Below, one piece after another: positions 3,101 through 50,713 of a stretch of 64,000 nt of DNA (position 1 is the first letter of the stretch; the number at the start of each line of letters is the position of its first letter). The DNA comes from Escherichia phage LinBro: the sequence record OR896830.1. One strand, given 5' to 3'. Made by a program: the position numbers and the translations under genes. A model generated the notes under the pieces. It was not told the DNA's origin and did not search any database. It worked only from the letters and a program-made list of their open reading frames with translations.

Positions 3101-3600
3101 TGGCTGAAGTTATCTCTATTTCAAATGCTACACGAGTGCATTCGTATAGAGGTGTTCTTATTATCACTGACAAATTATCTGTAGAGGCTGGCTCAAGGGT
3201 CAGCCTTTCAGGTTACGTAAGTGACGGTGGAACCTCTGACGTTTTCACTATTTGTAGGTTACTTGATGCTCCAATGAGTGGAAAACCGTTTATTTCAGAA
3301 AATTGTAGTGAAATTGTTAAAATTCCATTTGACAGTTCATGCCTTTTGGGTGTAAAGTTATATAACTGCGAGAATAAACGTATTAATGTTAACAGCATTG
3401 AAGCCGCTTTCATTACCCTCGACACTGCATTTCAATCTCCAATGACAGTTAATAAAGAAACAAACAGACTTGAATACATTTTTTCAAAAAATGATTACAA
3501 AGTACTTGTCAAAGGTAAAGTATATGATATGATTGTAAATGTGGTAGATGAATCTGGTAACCATTCAACAGTCCTTAAACAAAAAGTAAGGTTTAATTAA
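3100..3600 (+). CDS. hypothetical protein (possibly virion-associated)
   Basis: 166 aa ORF with start overlapping portal stop (ATGG/TAATG coupling); no recognisable motif. Confidence 0.4.
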   Translation: MAEVISISNATRVHSYRGVLIITDKLSVEAGSRVSLSGYVSDGGTSDVFTICRLLDAPMSGKPFISENCSEIVKIPFDSSCLLGVKLYNCENKRINVNSIEAAFITLDTAFQSPMTVNKETNRLEYIFSKNDYKVLVKGKVYDMIVNVVDESGNHSTVLKQKVRFN

Positions 3601-29851: not shown

Positions 29852-30408
29852 TTAGTGTACTTCAAGCCAATTCTTACCAACTTTACCAGTACCAGTTACA
29901 AGCGTTTCCTCCTTAAGTCCTAAGTTTCTTGATGCCTGACCATACATCCAGTCAATCACTGCTTTAACATCTTGTGTCATCTCTTCTGGGCACTCCCAAC
30001 TGTTCTCATCGTGGTATGCTAGAAGCAATCTAGCACCAATAGCTGGTTTTCGACCATTCAGCTTTGTAAGACCCTCTTCACAAGTTCTTCTACAAGCGAG
30101 GTTGATGGCTTCATTCTGAACCTGACTTTCCGAACCCATGAGCAGATAATTCAATAGTTTGTGTGGAGATTTACACCACAACCATGCACCAGCAACCTTT
30201 ACAAAACCACCTTTAGAGATTGCAGCAGTCTTACCAAATACCTCTTCAAGAGCCTTCTTAGTGGCTTTGAAGTCAGCTTCCAAATTATCTATCAACTTTT
30301 TAATCTTAGGGAGGCGTACAAAGTAAGTTTGCTTAGTTAAAGCACCTTCTTCGGTTGTTGATGCTTTAATCGTCTTGGCAAACTTCTCATCACCTGCCCC
30401 AAACAATA
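29852..30408 (-). CDS. DNA polymerase (family A), exon 2
   Basis: Begins LFGAGDEK (end of O-helix/motif B) and contains motif C LLLAYHDE; joined in frame to exon 1 by predicted splicing. Confidence 0.7.
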
Positions 30409-31209
30409 CATCTGGTCAATACACTCGCAAGGTGTACCAGTTCTCTTATGAACTTCTCCGCATTTCTACGGAGTGTCGGACTATATCACGTAGTAGTAAT
30501 ACTACCGTTGCACTTGGGAATGGTCATTAGCTTACCACCCTACTCTACTCAGTTCATACATTAAGTATGCTTTTCGATAGTCTCTGAACGTTTCTCTGTT
30601 AGGAACTCTAAAATACTATTGTTTACTAAGGTATGCAATTGCTCTCTGCATATTATCAACGCTATCTGCAAGCAACCCCAAAGCCCTATTGCAATTGTGG
30701 CACAACATACCTCTTACTTTTCCGGTTTTGTGGTCATGGTCAACGACAAGTTTAGCCTTATGCCGTGAACTATTCATGATAAAACCTTCACCGCCACAAA
30801 TTTGACATTTGTAATCACAGTTACGAAGTAGGGTTTCAACCTCTTCTCTTTCTAAACCATATGTTCTCAGGTAGTAATTCTTAACTCTACCTTTCTCTCC
30901 GCAATGCGAAGAACAATAAACTTGCCTTGCTGTTCTAGGCATGAACACCTTCTCACAGCTAGGACATTTCTTAGTAAGAACCCTATGTTCTGCTCTTCTG
31001 TCAAATTTTAATACGCAACTTCTGCACCGTTTTTGATTGTATTGGTATGGTTTAAACTCTGCACCACACTCAGTACACAATCTCTCTTTGTAACCTGCCA
31101 TTGTCTCTCTCCTTTGCTTTAGGAGTCCTAACAGAGACTTCGCTGCTGATTACCATATCTTTACAGACTTAGGCTTCCAGCAATTCACAACGTTTTACAT
31201 GCGCCACTG
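30409..31209 (-). mobile_element. group I intron interrupting the DNA polymerase gene (carries an HNH ORF)
   Basis: Exon 1 ends in U (31210) and intron ends in G (30409); P1 helix exon UAUGCGU with guide GCGCAUG (31204-31198); core elements GTTCAGAGACTA (30589-30578) and GATATAGTCC (30487-30478) on - strand; exon lengths sum in frame (2173+557=2730). Confidence 0.75.
30616..31101 (-). CDS. intron-encoded HNH / endonuclease VII-family homing endonuclease
   Basis: Cys-rich zinc ribbons (CTECG, CRSC, CPSC, CQIC) and VVDHDHKTGKVRGMLCHNCNRALG catalytic motif. Confidence 0.7.
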   Translation of the reverse strand: MAGYKERLCTECGAEFKPYQYNQKRCRSCVLKFDRRAEHRVLTKKCPSCEKVFMPRTARQVYCSSHCGEKGRVKNYYLRTYGLEREEVETLLRNCDYKCQICGGEGFIMNSSRHKAKLVVDHDHKTGKVRGMLCHNCNRALGLLADSVDNMQRAIAYLSKQ

Positions 31210-33382
31210 ACGCATAAATGCCATTCTTGGCTTTCTTACGACCCTTACTAATTTCTTGAAGAAGGTTTGTATCCTGAGTAGCTCGACAAGTCAAGATATC
31301 TTCCTCTTTATTAAGGCTGAAGTAGATGCTATTTAAAGTATGCGCATCAGTTCCTGAGTACACCACGTACAAGTCATTTTCAGAATCATAATGCAAATAC
31401 TTGTCAATCTCTGGGTTTAGATACTGGTCAAAATGTTTGCAATAGTATCTGCCATCCTCTTGTTTGACAAACTCAACTTCTTCTTTACCCTCTGTCACTG
31501 CTTTGGTGAACTCTTTATCACCCATAAAGTTACACAGCAGTACAAGTTGCGCGCTATTCATATCTGCTGAAACAATATTAGTTCCTTCTTCACAAGTCCA
31601 CACCTCCCTCATAGGTGCTCCATAGACAGCAGCACCAGACGGTACGTTTACAATACCATATTGTGTCATACGTCCAGTTGAAGTACCAAACACCATTGCA
31701 CCAGCACTAAGGCGACCATCAGGACGAATCTGGTTCAACCAACCTTTTTCATCATCTTTTGAGTTCTCAATAGTTCTGCGTCGGTGCATTAAAGTATAGT
31801 ACTTAGCAATCTTCTGTCCAAGCTCACCTTCAATCGTATCATAAGATGATTCAGTAAGTTTTGGTGAAGTACGGATTAAGCAAGGCTCAAGCAAATCTGT
31901 GTACTTCTTCACAGACCAGTTATGCTCAATGTACTGTACACCTTCATGTTCAACATAACTCAAACCACACCGCTCAACCATTTCCTGCCACTTAGGATGC
32001 TTTGTAATCATCTTTTTATTGTCTTTGAAACGACAAACTTTAACAGGGCGACCATCTGAGTCTTTCTTGTAGTTCCAGTCATCTGGAATCCAACCAACTG
32101 ATTTCAAGTAGTCTTTAACAACTGCTACCTGAGTCATACGAGAAACTTCGAACTCAATTGGTGTATATGGTGCATCAATCAAACCTGTGTAGCGACTTGA
32201 CTCAAGTTCAAAGTGATTGACAACGTGACTGTTATAGTACTTCACAGTCTTGACTGTTTTTACTGGTTTCCAGTCTTTGCATTTTTTGCCAATCTTTGCA
32301 TTCAACTCGTTGCAGATTGCACGAGCATCCTTCATCGCTACAAAACCCTCTTTGTACTCTTCACCAGTTACAGAGTTGGTTGGTGTATAGCAATTTCTCT
32401 TTTCAATGTTAAAAATCTTTGTAGTTGGCTTACCAAATGGTTTGATTTCATAAGTCTGCATCTCACCATTACGTACCTGCTGACGGTACTTTGTCTTAGG
32501 GTACTTGGTAATTCTCTTCAGTCCATCTGCATGACCAAATGTTTCAACATACTCATTCCAAGCTTTTGCAAACTCTTCTCCAGTCACTTTACCTTTGGTC
32601 TTAATAGTTGGAGGTAGATGTGGTTCAACCTCTGAAGCAAGCTCATTAGTCAACTTGTCAAGTTCCTTTACATGGAACTCCATAAGCTCCTTATCAGCTT
32701 TCCAACCATTGATAGCTTGTTGACTCATCCAGAAAGATGTTTCTTTAGCTCGCATATAGGTTTCATAAGTATCTATGCCACACTTCTTAAGCTTGAGATA
32801 CTCATTATCAAGTGCCCGTTTAGTTTTGGCGTTAATACGGATATCTTCTACAACACGAGTGAAGATTTCTGCATTCCACACACCCCAATGTTCAATCTCT
32901 GGTTTACGGACACCAACACGAGCACCCCATGCAGCCAAACCATGAGCACCTTTATAACCCTTTGGGGTTGGCCTATCCATCCACTGAACACGAGACTGGA
33001 TAAGAGAATCCTGAAAGAAATTACTCCACGGCTTACATTTTGGATTATCAAAGTTCCATAAATCAGGCGCAATGTGATTGAAAACCCACCAGTCATAGCC
33101 GAGACCATTATGGATGCAAAGACGTTTTGCCTTTAACGCAAATTCAACACCTTCACGTAAGCCGCCCTTGATGTACTTAGTGTACTTGTGACCGAGGATA
33201 GGTTCATCTGTAAAGACCCATACAGGTGGCTCTTCATCATCAGATTTATAGTCTGCGAAAGCCATTACGTGCACTTTAGTGAACTCAAGGAGTAAACCAT
33301 CAGTTTCTGTATCACCAACCAAATGTAAGTTTTTAAAATCTACGTTTTCCATTTTTACTCCCTCTAAAATCATTAACCTCAT
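31210..33382 (-). CDS. DNA polymerase (family A), exon 1 with 3'-5' exonuclease domain
   Basis: Exo I motif HLVGDTETDGL near N-terminus; motif A-like IVSADMNSAQL; motif B start RKKAKNGIY just before the splice site; the track ORF continues 41 nt into the intron to stop at 31169. Confidence 0.75.
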
Positions 33383-46534: not shown

Positions 46535-47731
46535 ATGAACAAAGTACAGATTATTAAAAAGAATGGCTCACTTGAAGAACCCGATATCAAAAAAGTTTTA
46601 GCAGCAGTAACTAAGTCAGCTAACAGGGTTGGATATAAAGAACTTCCACCAGATGTTACCCAAGCTCTTGAGTCAGCATTTATGAGGATTCTGGTAAAGT
46701 CCACTAAGCAGAATAATTTGCTCATCTCGGTAAATGATATTCACAGTATTGTTGAGGGTGCTTTGGCAGAAGTCAATCACGAGATTTATGAGTCTTACTC
46801 AACATATAGAAATTACCGTAAAGAGGTTGCTCAAAATTGGGACGAGCTTTACCAAAAGACTAGGGATACACTCTTCTTAGGTGACCGTGAAAATGCTAAC
46901 TTTGACAGTAGTTTAATTTCTACAAAAGGCTCAATTATTCGTGGTTACTTGACTAAAGAAATCTTTAAACAGTACCATTTAACACCAGAGGAACTTGAAG
47001 CCATTGAAAAAGGGTTTATCTACATCCATGACTTAAGAGACCTAATTTTTGGTGGTATCAACTGTTGCCTGTTTGACATCGGCAAAGTACTGAAAGGTGG
47101 CTTTGAAATGTCTGGTATCGAATACTGTGAACCAAAGTCTGTGCTGTCAGCCTTACAGGTTATTGGTGATGTAGTTCTTTCAGCAACTGCACAGCAATTT
47201 GGTGGCTTTACTTTAGCAGAGATTGATAAGGTACTTGTGCCGTATGCTAAAAAATCTTTAGTGTACCACTCAGAGAAAGCTGAAGAGTACGGAATCCCTA
47301 AAGAGCAACACTATAATTACGTAATGGAGCAATTACAGAATGAGTTAACACAAGGTTTCCAATCTCTTGAAATGAAACTCAACACTGTTCCTTGCAGTCG
47401 CGGTGATTTTGCATTTACTACTCTGACATTTGGCCTGTTGGAACCAGATATGCACAATGAAGATAACCGTCTTCAGTTTATGATTGCTAATACAATCCTT
47501 AATGTAAGGATGAACGGGCAAGGGAAAAGCAAAAAACCTGTTGTTTTTCCTAAACTTGTGTATATCTATGAAGAGACAAGACATAAACTTGATGTATGCC
47601 AAGCAAGGTTGTTTGAAAAAGCTATTGAGTGTTGCTCTAAAGCGATGTATCCAGATTTCTTAAGTGTATCTGGTCATGGTGCTGTAGCAGATGCTTTTGA
47701 GCGTTCTGGTAAGGTGATTTCACCGATGGGT
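46535..47731 (+). CDS. nrdD: anaerobic ribonucleotide reductase (class III), exon 1
   Basis: N-terminal ATP-cone; exon ends ...KVISPMG with final nt U at 47731, before the in-frame stop at 47732-47734 that lies in the intron. Confidence 0.75.
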
Positions 47732-48473
47732 TAACAAGCTCTATAGCTCATCTAAAACGTGCCTAAACAGGGAAACTCTACAGATGTAGACAATCCTGTG
47801 CTAAATGATGTACGATGTAAGAAACTATACAACATAGGAGTCTTACATGCCAAACTATCACGTCACTGAAGATGGAAAAGTCTTTAGGGAAAATGGTGTA
47901 GAGCTTACGCAGTGGAAATCCAACACTGGGTATATGAAAGTGAGGTTTTACGGTAAGAAGAATCGTGACATGTATGTCCACAGGTTAGTTGCTGAGAAAT
48001 ATGTACCTAACCCGAACAATCTTCCAATTGTAAAACATAAGGACGATAACAAACTAAATAACCACGTATCTAACTTAGAATGGGGTACTCATTCTGATAA
48101 TGCTAAAGAAGGTTATGAGAATGGATGTTACAAGTTCCACAAGCGTTCATATGCCGTGAAAGCCACACACAAAGTGACAAAGGAAGTTATTGTTACTAAG
48201 TCAATACGAGAGTTATCCAATATACTTGGATACAATCGCAAGACCATCTCTTCAATATTGAAGGGTGTAAAAGAGCATAATAACTTCGAATATGAGTTTG
48301 AATACATCTAAATGCCGAACGACTAACCGTGATGAATGTAGCGGTGTAGGGTCAAGCGACTCGAAATGGTACGCTACTTAGAAATAAGTAGAAGATATAG
48401 TCTGGACTTACTGGCGACAGTAAGCAGCTTGAATAAAGCGGGGTAAGCTTAGCGAACTTACCTGAACAATAAG
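47732..48473 (+). mobile_element. group I intron interrupting nrdD (carries an HNH ORF)
   Basis: Exon 1 ends in U, intron ends in G (aag at 48471-48473); P1 helix exon GATGGGT with guide GCTCATC (47746-47752); core elements GAACGACTAA (48317-48326) and AAGATATAGTC (48391-48401); join gives ISPMG|CRAFLSP. Confidence 0.75.
47847..48311 (+). CDS. intron-encoded HNH homing endonuclease
   Basis: 154 aa; VHRLVAEKY...HKDDNKLNNHVSNLEWGTHSDN typical of the HNH_3-type family. Confidence 0.7.
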   Translation: MPNYHVTEDGKVFRENGVELTQWKSNTGYMKVRFYGKKNRDMYVHRLVAEKYVPNPNNLPIVKHKDDNKLNNHVSNLEWGTHSDNAKEGYENGCYKFHKRSYAVKATHKVTKEVIVTKSIRELSNILGYNRKTISSILKGVKEHNNFEYEFEYI

Positions 48474-49421
48474 TGTAGAGCATTTTTATCACCATACCAT
48501 AACGAATATGGTGAAGAGTTTTATGTAGGTCGTGCTAACATTGGTGCTGTATCTTTGAACTTACCAATGATTTACCAGTATTCTAAAGAGAATGGTTTAG
48601 ATTTCTGGAAAGAGCTTGATAAGTACCTAGAGATGATTCGCAGCTTCCACAAGAAACGCTACGAAATGATTGCTAATATGCCAGCAAGCTCTAACCCTCT
48701 TGCATTCACACAAGGTGGCCTGTACAAAGGGACTAAGAAATCTACCGACAAGGTTGGCTGGGATATCGTGAAGTCCTTCACAGCTTCTTTTGGAGTTACT
48801 GCGCTTGATGAGCTATCTGTTCTTGCTGAAGGTAAACGACTTCATGAAGTTGGGAGCTATAGTTTTGCATACGATGTTCTGGCATACATCAACATGAAAA
48901 CTGAAGAGTTTAAAAATGAAGATGGCTTCTTATATGCTGTCTATGGTACTCCAGCAGAATCACTTTGTGGAACTCAACTAAAACAGTTCAGAGAAATGTT
49001 TGGTGTTATCAAAGGTGTTTCTGACAAGGAATACTTTACAAACAGTTTCCATATGAATGTTGCAGCAGACATCTCACCATTTGAGAAGCAGGACTTAGAA
49101 GAGCCATTCTTCCATATCTGTAGAGGTGGCAGAATCCAGTATGTCAGGGTAGCTAACCCAGAAAACTTAACAGCACTTAAGAGTTGTATTACAAGAGGGA
49201 TGTTGAAAGGTTTTTATCAGGGACTTAACTTTGACCTAGCAATTTGTGAGCATTGTGGTAGCAGACCAAAGGCTGATGTTGAAGAATGTGAGGTTTGCCA
49301 TTCACATGACATCTCTGTGATTAACAGGGTGTGCGGATATCTGGGATGGACTAAGATTAAAGGTGAATCCCGAATGAATGATGCAAAAATCGCTGAGATT
49401 CGTGACAGGATTTCTATGTAA
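48474..49421 (+). CDS. nrdD: anaerobic ribonucleotide reductase (class III), exon 2
   Basis: Begins CRAFLSP...GRANIGAVSLNLP; C-terminal CxxC zinc site and glycyl-radical motif RVCGYLG. Confidence 0.75.
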   Translation, partial: CRAFLSPYHNEYGEEFYVGRANIGAVSLNLPMIYQYSKENGLDFWKELDKYLEMIRSFHKKRYEMIANMPASSNPLAFTQGGLYKGTKKSTDKVGWDIVKSFTASFGVTALDELSVLAEGKRLHEVGSYSFAYDVLAYINMKTEEFKNEDGFLYAVYGTPAESLCGTQLKQFREMFGVIKGVSDKEYFTNSFHMNVAADISPFEKQDLEEPFFHICRGGRIQYVRVANPENLTALKSCITRGMLKGFYQGLNFDLAICEHCGSRPKADVEECEVCHSHDISVINRVCGYLGWTKIKGESRMNDAKIAEIRDRISM

Positions 49422-50227: not shown

Positions 50228-50713
50228 ATGAATTACATGGAGATTAGACCATTTGACACAGCTAATGGTGAAGGGGTTCGTGTAAGCCTCTTCGTAGCTG
50301 GCTGTAAACATCACTGTGAAGGCTGCTTTAACAGGGAGTCTTGGAAGTTTAATGCTGGTAAAGTATTTACTTATGCAAACCTCTACGGCATCATTAAGTT
50401 AATGGATGATGAGGCCATCAGTGGGTTGTCAATACTTGGTGGGGAGCCTCTGGATGATAGAAACATTCAAGAGGTCACCAACATATGCAAACGTATTAAA
50501 ACTGTTTATCCAGAAAAGTCTATATGGCTTTGGACAGGTTTTCAGTTACACGAAAAAATTCACTTAGATGTGATGAAATATGTTGACGTAGTGATTGATG
50601 GTAAGTATGATTCATCTAAACCAACAGTTAAACCTTATCGTGGTTCTGATAACCAAAACCTCTGGAGAAAAGAGTATGGGTGGCAAGGTGATTGTCAATG
50701 GCGAGCAGAATGA
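50228..50713 (+). CDS. nrdG: anaerobic ribonucleotide reductase activating protein (radical SAM)
   Basis: CKHHCEGC (Cx3Cx2C) radical-SAM cluster motif near N-terminus; 161 aa; near nrdD. Confidence 0.75.
   Translation: MNYMEIRPFDTANGEGVRVSLFVAGCKHHCEGCFNRESWKFNAGKVFTYANLYGIIKLMDDEAISGLSILGGEPLDDRNIQEVTNICKRIKTVYPEKSIWLWTGFQLHEKIHLDVMKYVDVVIDGKYDSSKPTVKPYRGSDNQNLWRKEYGWQGDCQWRAE

Follow-up and report, generated by a model that had tools for sequence, protein, structure and literature searches.

A predicted mobile group I intron with its own HNH endonuclease gene at the catalytic-cysteine codon of nrdD in Felixounavirus phages

In Escherichia phage LinBro (sequence record OR896830.1) the reading frame of nrdD, the gene for a class III ribonucleotide reductase, stops after ...KVISPMG and resumes with CRAFLSP at position 48474. 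What is the sequence that separates the two halves, and could a functional reductase be made in spite of it? The preliminary description of the locus had proposed a group I intron with an embedded endonuclease gene, and the ORFs and the sequence agree with its account of where the frame ends and resumes. Coordinates below are those of the window, that is, the whole stretch of 64,000 nucleotides that was analysed. The main features are as follows.

46535 to 47731, plus strand: nrdD exon 1, 399 codons, encoding the ATP-cone and the N-terminal half of the NrdD barrel
47732 to 48473, plus strand: putative group I intron of subgroup IA type without P2, 742 nt, assigned by comparison with the intron-less garuso and Felix O1 alleles, partial RF00028 matches and covariation
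48473, plus strand: omega-G, presumptive last base of the intron, at the 3' splice site, from the sequence and from the boundary given by the intron-less alleles
48474 to 49421, plus strand: nrdD exon 2, 315 codons plus stop, assigned by Pfam NRDD and Gly_radical and by alignment to T4
50228 to 50713, plus strand: nrdG-like activase ORF, assigned by its CxxxCxxC motif and synteny with the Bas63 annotation

The two halves belong to a single protein. The ORF of exon 1 (46535-47734 in the ORF list) runs into a TAA formed by the first bases of the insert; it matches the Pfam ATP-cone and positions 1-246 of the 562 in the NRDD profile, and can be aligned to T4 NrdD. Exon 2, whose frame is open from 48474 and whose first codon specifies the catalytic finger-loop Cys, covers positions 264-560 of the same profile as well as Gly_radical, and contains GRANIGAVSLNLP, the Zn-ribbon cysteines and the glycyl-radical motif RVCGYLG. 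Once the 742 nt are taken out, an uninterrupted protein of 714 amino acids is predicted, with the peptide ...VISPMGCRAFLSPYHNEYGEEFYVGR across the join; it aligns to T4 NrdD (E = 3e-78) without a break at that point. The join corresponds to T4 G289|C290, with C400 aligned with C290, and the insertion splits the finger-loop motif MG|CR directly ahead of the catalytic Cys codon; in T4 the motif is 288-MGCR-291 (PMC4493059). The length of 714 residues is the one given in the preliminary description, and the ISPMG|CRAFL junction, which it had matched to a motif of E. coli NrdD, has its equivalent in T4 NrdD as VSPMG-CRSFLS (residues 285-295). A barrel with its finger-loop Cys, the glycyl-radical motif, the Zn-ribbon cysteines and an NrdG-like neighbour together identify the product as a class III NrdD. 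The NrdG activase is the partner that such an enzyme needs.

The limits of the insertion can be set to the base. An intron-less nrdD failing to align across the join had been named beforehand as evidence against an intron; the alleles of garuso and Felix O1 can be aligned base by base through the join, relative to which the window has an insertion of exactly 742 nt, and chance is excluded as an explanation. Taken alone, these alignments leave a slack of one T in the boundaries, which are fixed at 47732 and 48473 because this is the sole placement with an exon-final U (T 47731) and an intron-final G (G 48473), the junction originally put forward. The Felix O1 genome paper describes that phage as having no introns, consistent with its carrying the intron-less allele. 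An element removed at the protein level, such as an intein, might also be thought of, since ribonucleotide reductase genes often harbour inteins, which also target catalytic motifs (PMC3653736). Here, however, a TAA directly follows exon 1, and the embedded ORF is equipped with a ribosome-binding site and a start codon of its own and is separated from both exons by stops; frame and stop codons rule this reading out, and we give it practically no weight.

The sequences flanking the embedded ORF can be folded into a complete group I ribozyme, with the following proposed elements.

47725 to 47752, plus strand: P1 hairpin, exon GAUGGGU (47725-47731) with internal guide GCUCAUC (47746-47752)
47758 to 47812, plus strand: 5' half of the core, from the P3 5' strand to the P6a 5' strand
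47758 to 47763, plus strand: P3 5' strand
47767 to 47772 with 47794 to 47799, plus strand: P4
47777 to 47790, plus strand: P5 hairpin
47800 to 47801, plus strand: P6 5' strand
47807 to 47812, plus strand: P6a 5' strand
48303 to 48462, plus strand: 3' half of the ribozyme, from P6a' to P9.2
48303 to 48308, plus strand: P6a'
48314 to 48315, plus strand: P6'
48321 to 48325 with 48398 to 48402, plus strand: P7
48326 to 48345, plus strand: P7.1
48349 to 48362, plus strand: P7.2
48368 to 48373, plus strand: P3'
48374 to 48391, plus strand: P8, with a GAAA loop
48392 to 48397, plus strand: J8/7, AAGAUA
48407 to 48424, plus strand: P9, with a GCGA loop
48427 to 48439, plus strand: P9.1
48442 to 48462, plus strand: P9.2

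P1 has 7 bp, including the U·G pair at the splice site (U47731·G47746), just as had been proposed when GATGGGT was matched to GCTCATC. Its loop holds the P10 guide CUCUAUA (47739-47745), which can form 7 bp with the first 7 nt of exon 2, UGUAGAG. The P3/P7 pseudoknot and the helices from P4 to P9.2 are present, P7.1 and P7.2, which are typical of subgroup IA, among them. The only spacer between P1 and P3 is UAAAA, so that P2 is absent, which is unusual among relatives of the T4 td intron. The two core elements of the preliminary description were both recovered: GAACGACTAA lies at 48317-48326 as given, and AAGATATAGTC is found at 48392-48402, one base away from the 48391-48401 assigned to it. 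A precise insertion whose removal restores the gene, the U·G pair of P1, the terminal G, P10 and the P3-P8 core jointly mark the 742 bases as a group I intron, one that appears to be of subgroup IA type and related to the T4 td intron, finer placement in IA1, IA2 or IA3 aside.

Comparison of homologues lends weight to this fold. In three lineages, each of the 14 helices is paired throughout. In the alignment used for scoring (A4), 99.7% of 394 cells are paired, with one mismatch, and 36 of 90 pairs show changes on both sides, i.e. compensatory ones; A4 consists of 5 rows from these 3 lineages and was hand-fitted to the proposed structure, so that its counts are biased toward it. In control runs, slid pairings gave 0-2 such pairs and 29-42% pairing, and none of 500 shuffles reached the observed values. 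A4 is a block alignment with N-masked loops, which MAFFT returned gap-free, and in the pair count P3 and P7 were scored as separate bracket types. It replaced two MAFFT alignments, one automatic on ORF-excised introns (A2) and one N-padded (A3), in which P5, P7.2, P8 and the P9.x helices were out of register. P7.2 contains 2 covarying pairs, and both P1 and P10 covary in phage navn and the Vibrio homologue: the outermost P1 pair is G-C here, C-G in navn and U·G in the Vibrio phage. An unconstrained minimum-free-energy fold of an ORF-less allele recovered most helices, P3-P6a included (z = -3.0).

Could the insert have decayed to a relic incapable of splicing, leaving nrdD a pseudogene and the anaerobic dNTP supply to the host? 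A search of the whole window at the Rfam gathering threshold gave no match, P2 is missing, splicing is itself deduced, and the endonuclease ORF has been lost repeatedly. The low Rfam score, however, is a consequence of the endonuclease ORF splitting the ribozyme. The covariance search called for in the preliminary description matched the two intron halves separately to RF00028 in E-value mode (33.1 and 15.6 bits), and natural ORF-less copies of the nrdD intron, at 53.6 and 54.3 bits, exceeded the cutoff of 50; the copy scoring 53.6, from EC6, differs from the ORF-excised intron of the window at 2 of 340 bases. The helices are intact in every allele examined but for the one mismatch just cited; both exons are open, and few substitutions are seen in the exon sequence next to the intron in any of the 11 other intron-carrying alleles that were aligned. 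The intron occurs in about 93 records, and a C-to-T change at position +3 of exon 2 improves the P10 pairing. On balance, we consider decay an improbable account. Judging from this architecture, we infer guanosine-dependent self-splicing, or splicing in vivo, of the nrdD intron.

The same structure bears on a view that prevails in the databases. Most GenBank records list two separate nrdD CDSs and a homing endonuclease, and two papers describe a split gene (PMC4837284, PMC3728262). There is a precedent in Aeromonas phage Aeh1, whose NrdA is split by mobE: a free-standing endonuclease gene would sit within nrdD, and the halves would be translated separately and then assembled, with no RNA splicing involved. 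Against this, the sequences on either side of the endonuclease ORF together make up a complete group I ribozyme, in which compensatory changes are found, and the ORF-less copies still retain precisely a ribozyme of 292-316 nt. Furthermore, the earliest in-frame start of exon 2 in the ORF list is a TTG at 48555, 27 codons beyond the catalytic Cys, so that a separately translated second polypeptide would be without that residue. With a ribozyme present and an exon 2 that cannot be independently translated with its Cys, we think it very improbable that this nrdD works in pieces, and return to the intron.

The loop of P6a contains the endonuclease gene, preceded by a hairpin.

47847 to 48311, plus strand: putative homing endonuclease gene of the I-HmuI-like HNH type, 154 aa, in the P6a loop, assigned by Pfam HNH_3 and alignment to I-HmuI
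47815 to 47848, plus strand: hairpin AUGUAAGA/UCUUACAU, enclosing the Shine-Dalgarno AGGAG (47836-47840) and pairing the first two bases of the start codon (47847)

The last codons of the ORF double as the 3' strand of P6a. That the 154-residue product is of HNH_3 type, as initially suggested, is borne out by Pfam (E = 3.5e-10, 39.8 bits, cutoff 24.8); NUMOD1, at 17.6 bits, falls under its cutoff of 22.8. Residues 3-153 align with residues 12-170 of I-HmuI (PDB 1u3e; E = 5e-9), which is full length. H64, N72, N76 and N85 are invariant across four homologues; the profile match, the full-length alignment and these residues place the protein in the I-HmuI-type HNH family. In I-HmuI the residue just ahead of the catalytic His is an Asp that serves as a metal ligand. 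The protein encoded here has a Lys at this position, so that its activity is not assured. An early in-frame stop also makes it 5 residues shorter than its counterparts in navn and the Vibrio phages. It may nick DNA at a specific site near the insertion point, as its family suggests; the intron-linked variants on the exon 2 side, described below, bear on this only circumstantially. In navn and Vibrio 355E48.1, hairpins of other sequence likewise pair or flank the ribosome-binding site at this position, and the one at 47815-47848 may have a regulatory role for the endonuclease.

The intron is optional. It occurs in about 93 of 225 related records, with the endonuclease ORF in 60 of them, and the ORF-less introns, of 316 nt and 292 nt, represent two independent ORF deletions. 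In other Felixounavirus genomes (e.g. Alf5, pinkbiff, UAB_Phi87, FSL SP-010 and Bas63/JohannRWettstein) it is 93-100% identical, 742 nt long and at the same site. The same MG|C site is also occupied in Escherichia phage navn (Vequintavirus) and in the Vibrio crassostreae phages 355E48.1 and 184E37.1. Its presence is linked to a short stretch of the downstream exon.

48476 to 48527 (+3 to +54 of exon 2), plus strand: intron-linked exon 2 variant block, from allele comparison

Four core sites in this block (+3T, +9A/G, +12T and +18A), all synonymous, set apart 11 intron-carrying from 8 intron-less alleles, with two single-site exceptions. Between the window and garuso, whose sequence is 96% identical near the junction, +3 to +54 holds 11 differences, +55 to +200 a single one, and a 600-nt stretch of exon 1 has 9. 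The preliminary description had spoken of active homing traffic on the strength of a second intron in this phage. The claim of a second intron holds as well:

29852 to 33382, minus strand: family-A DNA polymerase gene split by an insert, with an Endonuclease_7 ORF and partial RF00028 matches

As for the traffic, comparison between genomes, the sole basis for this point, speaks in its favour: presence/absence polymorphism, two ORF deletions, homologues at the same site and the linked exon 2 block. It is tempting to go further. The block might not just be a scar left passively by co-conversion but a signature of self-immunity to a nickase of the I-HmuI type that recognises sequence entirely within exon 2; the intron might then serve as a weapon of marker exclusion or interference between co-infecting Felix O1-like phages, like the SPO1/SP82 and PhiPA3 intron endonucleases, and the intron-endonuclease unit might have moved among Felixounavirus, Vequintavirus and Vibrio phages by aiming at finger-loop codons that are invariant in NrdD. 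We advance this extended scenario tentatively and think it rather unlikely as it stands. With the endonuclease alignment as query, IMG/VR yielded 8 contigs of Felixounavirus and 7 distant HNH loci; the NrdD finger-loop junction was found in none of the latter (0/7), so that no further introns at this site came to light.

These data suggest the following course of events. The nrdD pre-mRNA would fold into the ribozyme, the final seven bases of exon 1 pairing with the internal guide to form P1, in which U·G marks the cleavage site, and the first seven of exon 2 with the adjoining guide segment to form P10. An external guanosine would attack after U47731, and the freed exon 1 would then attack after G48473, joining GGU to UGU; this would restore the finger-loop SPMG-CRAF and yield an active NrdD of 714 residues. 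Mobility would depend on the I-HmuI-type HNH endonuclease encoded in the P6a loop, with recombinational repair off an intron-bearing genome copying the intron along with a short stretch of exon 2; the activity and cut site of the enzyme and the direction of transfer are, like splicing itself, predictions. That a mobile, td-related group I intron of subgroup IA type is inserted in the class III reductase gene of Felixounavirus is a reading to which we assign a probability of about 0.9. It is directly supported by the insertion boundaries, the continuity of the spliced protein, a ribozyme architecture with covariation, the endonuclease family, the optional distribution and the linked exon 2 block.

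The most immediate consequence concerns annotation: in most Felix O1-like genomes, a single spliced NrdD of 714 aa should replace two nrdD fragments and a stray endonuclease. The exon 2 fragment as usually annotated starts past the catalytic cysteine and would therefore be non-functional. The locus also adds another mobile intron on the most conserved, indispensable codons of a ribonucleotide reductase, those of the finger-loop MG|CR, at a site common to three unrelated phage groups. Closely related and easily grown coliphages and Salmonella phages, which also serve in biocontrol, exist in three states (intron-less, intron with endonuclease, intron without it), and might provide a system for studying homing, co-conversion and endonuclease loss. 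No new question is opened, HNH-bearing phage group I introns in nucleotide-metabolism genes being textbook material.

How does the intron compare with those already known? Like the T4 nrdD (sunY) intron, it is a subgroup IA group I intron in a phage nrdD with a homing endonuclease. We rejected identity with sunY on three counts: sunY lies at about residue 179 (AYE|YEVNT), whereas the present site corresponds to T4 G289|C290; its endonuclease is annotated as the GIY-YIG I-TevII, whereas an HNH protein is found here; and the ORF is in P6a here, whereas that of sunY sits in the P9 region. The T4 td intron (subgroup IA2, I-TevI) is closer: the 3' half from P7 to P9.2 shows about 71% nucleotide identity, P7.1 and P7.2 are shared, and the td ORF is also in the P6 region. 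The td intron differs in its host gene and GIY-YIG endonuclease, and P2 is missing in the nrdD intron. The I-HmuI system likewise has an HNH endonuclease of this family within a group I intron of a phage; its host gene and insertion site are different. In the introns of navn and of Vibrio phages 355E48.1 and 184E37.1, the MG|C junction is the same and the ribozyme homologous, but P5, P6a, P7.2, P8 and P9.2 differ in length; the endonucleases are 41-51% identical in a four-protein alignment, and the ORFs extend into P7, ending in ...EMPND, whereas the ORF of the window stops 5 codons earlier. Homologous introns at one conserved site have been described across widely divergent phages (PMC3428280), and the occupation of one site in Felixounavirus, Vequintavirus and Vibrio phages parallels this. 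The accessible part of a survey of phage ribonucleotide reductases does not mention an nrdD intron at this site, the main text of a 2025 group I intron database paper does not mention phages, and our search of the literature found no ribozyme structure, splicing test or endonuclease test of this nrdD intron. Other Felixounavirus copies differ in nothing essential, most records and papers speaking of a split gene rather than an intron. In Bas63, NrdD is annotated as a join of two pieces that extends over the same 2887 nt and encloses the endonuclease gene, and the BASEL S5 table gives one intron for this phage. The intron is thus already known, present in dozens of public phage genomes and annotated as a joined CDS in Bas63: a real but ordinary mobile element.

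The interrupted nrdD gene (46535-49421) is matched by 296 phage records, nearly all from Felix O1-like myoviruses (Felixounavirus, Ounavirinae), among them Escherichia phage vB_EcoM_Alf5 (96.8% identity). It lies in the usual nucleotide-metabolism block, with an nrdB-like ORF, a glutaredoxin-like ORF, nrdD, small ORFs and an nrdG-like ORF, the neighbors being assigned from ORF translations and synteny with the annotation of the BASEL Felixounavirus Bas63. The first nrdD piece carries Pfam matches to the ATP-cone and to positions 1-246 of the 562-position NRDD profile; the second matches NRDD positions 264-560 and the glycyl-radical domain. The features of the locus are as follows.

46535-47734, plus strand: ORF of the first nrdD piece, ending ...KVISPMG, then TAA
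47725-47731 with 47746-47752, plus strand: helix P1, with a U·G pair at the splice site
47739-47745 with exon 2 bases 48474-48480, plus strand: helix P10, assigned by hand
47847-48311, plus strand: HNH endonuclease ORF, 154 aa (Pfam HNH_3, E = 3.5e-10; NUMOD1 below its cutoff)
48473, plus strand: terminal G of the intron
48474-49421, plus strand: second nrdD piece, in which the NrdD frame restarts with CRAFLSP...

When the predicted spliced junction was used as query, 225 related records fell into three classes: uninterrupted, with an insert of ~742 nt, or with an insert of ~316 nt. Alignment of the window with garuso and Felix O1, both intron-less, and with EC6 and SPJ41, which carry an ORF-less intron, places the insertion at exactly 47732-48473, with both flanking exons colinear, base for base. 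The alignment alone permits a one-base shift of these boundaries, because a T is present on each side; only with 47732-48473 does the exon end in U and the intron in G. The predicted spliced NrdD has 714 aa, as in the preliminary description, and aligns without a break to T4 NrdD (PDB 1h78, E = 3e-78). Within the alignment, SPMG|CRAFLSP lies over T4 SPMGCRSFLS and the join therefore falls between T4 G289 and C290. The T4 finger-loop motif is 288-MGCR-291, and the finger loop houses the cysteine that initiates catalysis (PMC4493059). An intein is ruled out by the stop codon and the frame.

The insert is a group I intron. At the gathering threshold, Rfam gave no match in the whole window, because the ORF parts the ribozyme into two; both parts matched RF00028, the Rfam group I intron model, in E-value mode (48244-48424, 33.1 bits; 47767-47850, 15.6 bits). 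Natural ORF-less copies score 53.6 bits (EC6) and 54.3 bits (SPJ41) against a cutoff of 50, and the ORF-excised window sequence differs from EC6 at 2 of 340 bases. Besides P1 and P10, we assigned by hand P3, P4, P5, P6, P6a, P7, P7.1, P7.2, P8, P9, P9.1 and P9.2. P2 is absent: between P1 and P3 there is only UAAAA. P7.1 and P7.2 are markers of subgroup IA, and the 3' half of the intron is ~71% identical to that of the T4 td intron. An unconstrained fold of the 316-nt allele recovered P3, P4, P5, P6, P6a, P7.2, P8, P9 and P9.2 (z = -3.0). The coordinates originally proposed for the locus hold throughout, except that AAGATATAGTC occupies 48392-48402, one base away from its first placement.

Introns homologous to this one, each with an endonuclease gene that is also homologous, occupy the same MG|C junction in Escherichia phage navn (Vequintavirus) and in two Vibrio crassostreae phages, 355E48.1 and 184E37.1. 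After taking out the ORF interiors, we compared the window, SPJ41, Salmonella phage RPN213 (another ORF-less carrier), navn and 355E48.1; each lineage has full pairing in all 14 helices. In a block alignment with masked loops, hand-fitted to the structure and covering three lineages only, standard pairs fill 99.7% of 394 cells and 36 of 90 pairs are changed on both sides, still far above both controls: sliding the 3' partners by 1-3 columns left 0-2 such pairs and 29-42% pairing, and none of 500 shuffles matched the observed values. Exon sequence covaries with P1 and P10, the latter being CUCUAUA/UGUAGAG in the window versus GAUUGGCA/UGCCGAUC in the Vibrio phage. A dead intron is unlikely: pairing is present in 393 of the 394 helix cells, and both exons stay open. 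As separate observations, the annotation of navn (MN850642.1, 63064-68525) divides nrdD into four or more pieces and places two ORFs within it, one of the inserts being the same-site homologue; and where 355E48.1 nrdD is annotated as breaking between "part 2" and "part 3" (locus L007, ~3330-3340), the sequence has a single in-frame TAA (KIDI*SE) and no insertion. The sister phage 184E37.1 is uninterrupted there; a nonsense mutation, recoding or a sequencing error could account for the TAA.

Residues 3-153 of the 154-aa protein align with residues 12-170 of I-HmuI, a phage intron HNH endonuclease (PDB 1u3e, E = 5e-9), and H64, N72, N76 and N85 are invariant in four homologues. With the RF00028 matches and the covarying helices, this bears out the initial interpretation of a group I intron with an HNH endonuclease. 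The ORF sits in the P6a loop, and its last codons make up the 3' strand of P6a. The ORFs of navn and the Vibrio phages run to a UAA within P7 (...EMPND), overlapping P6', J6/7 and P7; the window ORF stops earlier, at the in-frame UAA 48309-48311. Past this stop, five further codons in frame read AUG CCG AAC GAC UAA (region 48309-48326), corresponding to the ...MPND* ending of the homologues, and the early stop was therefore gained in the window copy. In all three lineages a stem-loop, of unlike sequence in each, pairs or flanks the Shine-Dalgarno and start codon of the endonuclease gene.

47815-47848 in the window: ribosome-binding-site stem-loop, z = -1.6
2440-2470 in the navn locus (L009): the same, z = -3.1
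1967-2025 in the 355E48.1 locus (L007): the same, z = -3.2

These hairpins suggest that endonuclease translation may be restrained; translational restraint of the T4 intron endonucleases offers a parallel. The cut made by I-HmuI itself lies 3 nt from the insertion site, and both I-HmuI and I-HmuII also cut intron-containing DNA (PMC3428280).

The intron is found in ~93 of ~225 related records and the ORF in 60, counts that are approximate given GenBank/RefSeq duplicates in the database. At least two losses of the ORF have left the ribozyme in place: EC6 and SPJ41 share an in-frame deletion leaving a 12-codon remnant and a 316-nt intron, and RPN213 has another, leaving 292 nt. Since these deletions are distinct, the losses were independent. 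Retention of the ribozyme after ORF loss, its intact and covarying structure, and the lack of a start codon that would take in the catalytic cysteine all contradict the reading of nrdD as an unspliced split gene.

The evidence for mobility is purely comparative. All 11 intron-carrying alleles in the comparison (7 with the ORF, 4 without) share +3T, +9A/G, +12T and +18A of exon 2, versus C, T/C, C and T/C in the 8 intron-less alleles compared, with a single exception at +3; all four changes are synonymous. The last 90 nt of exon 1 hold no intron-linked differences among the same alleles. The window differs from garuso at 11 positions in +3 to +54, at 1 in +55 to +200 and at 9 in 600 nt of exon 1. 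Such a block would fit one-sided co-conversion initiated by cutting within exon 2 or, alternatively or additionally, selection for P10 pairing and endonuclease resistance; +3T mends a C·A mismatch in P10. Separately, Felixounavirus-like sequence occurs in records MG065668.1 and MG065684.1 ("Campylobacter phage A126/A138"), A126 having an nrdD with an insert of the ORF-less size and A138 a 71% match to the intron 3' half. These are probably mis-assigned or contaminating contigs.

Two group I introns had been proposed for this phage. The other split gene encodes a family-A DNA polymerase and carries a group I-like insert.

29852-33382, minus strand: split polymerase gene (exon 1, 33382-31169; exon 2 frame, 30406-29852)
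31101-30616, minus strand: Endonuclease_7 (PF02945) ORF, 161 aa, in the polymerase insert

The insert gives partial matches to RF00028 (28.1 and 15.4 bits), and with the split gene and the Endonuclease_7 ORF this makes a count of two introns reasonable. Among records of the phage collection, 40 match 80% or more of the polymerase query (full insert); short-form records, among the matches listed, cover only ~38-42% of it, and this form looks like an ORF-less one.

The nrdD element is already public and already recognized as an intron. The Felix O1 paper reported introns to be absent from that phage, in agreement with its intron-less allele here. In later papers a homing endonuclease is said to split nrdD, or endonucleases to have inserted into conserved genes, but the term intron is not used (PMC4837284, PMC3728262); the SPJ41 paper speaks of "two introns" and gives no details. 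The BASEL collection enters one intron for Bas63. In the GenBank record of this phage NrdD is a join of two pieces that span the same 2887 nt and enclose the endonuclease, and the junction sequences are those of LinBro. What we add is the architecture of the ribozyme, the precise insertion site at the catalytic cysteine codon, the exon-2 variant block, same-site relatives in two further phage groups and separation from the T4 nrdD intron, sunY. That the insert is a typical mobile group I intron is well supported. Identity with sunY is ruled out, as site, endonuclease family and ORF position all differ: the T4 intron splits nrdD at about residue 179 (AYE|YEVNT) and holds the GIY-YIG enzyme I-TevII.
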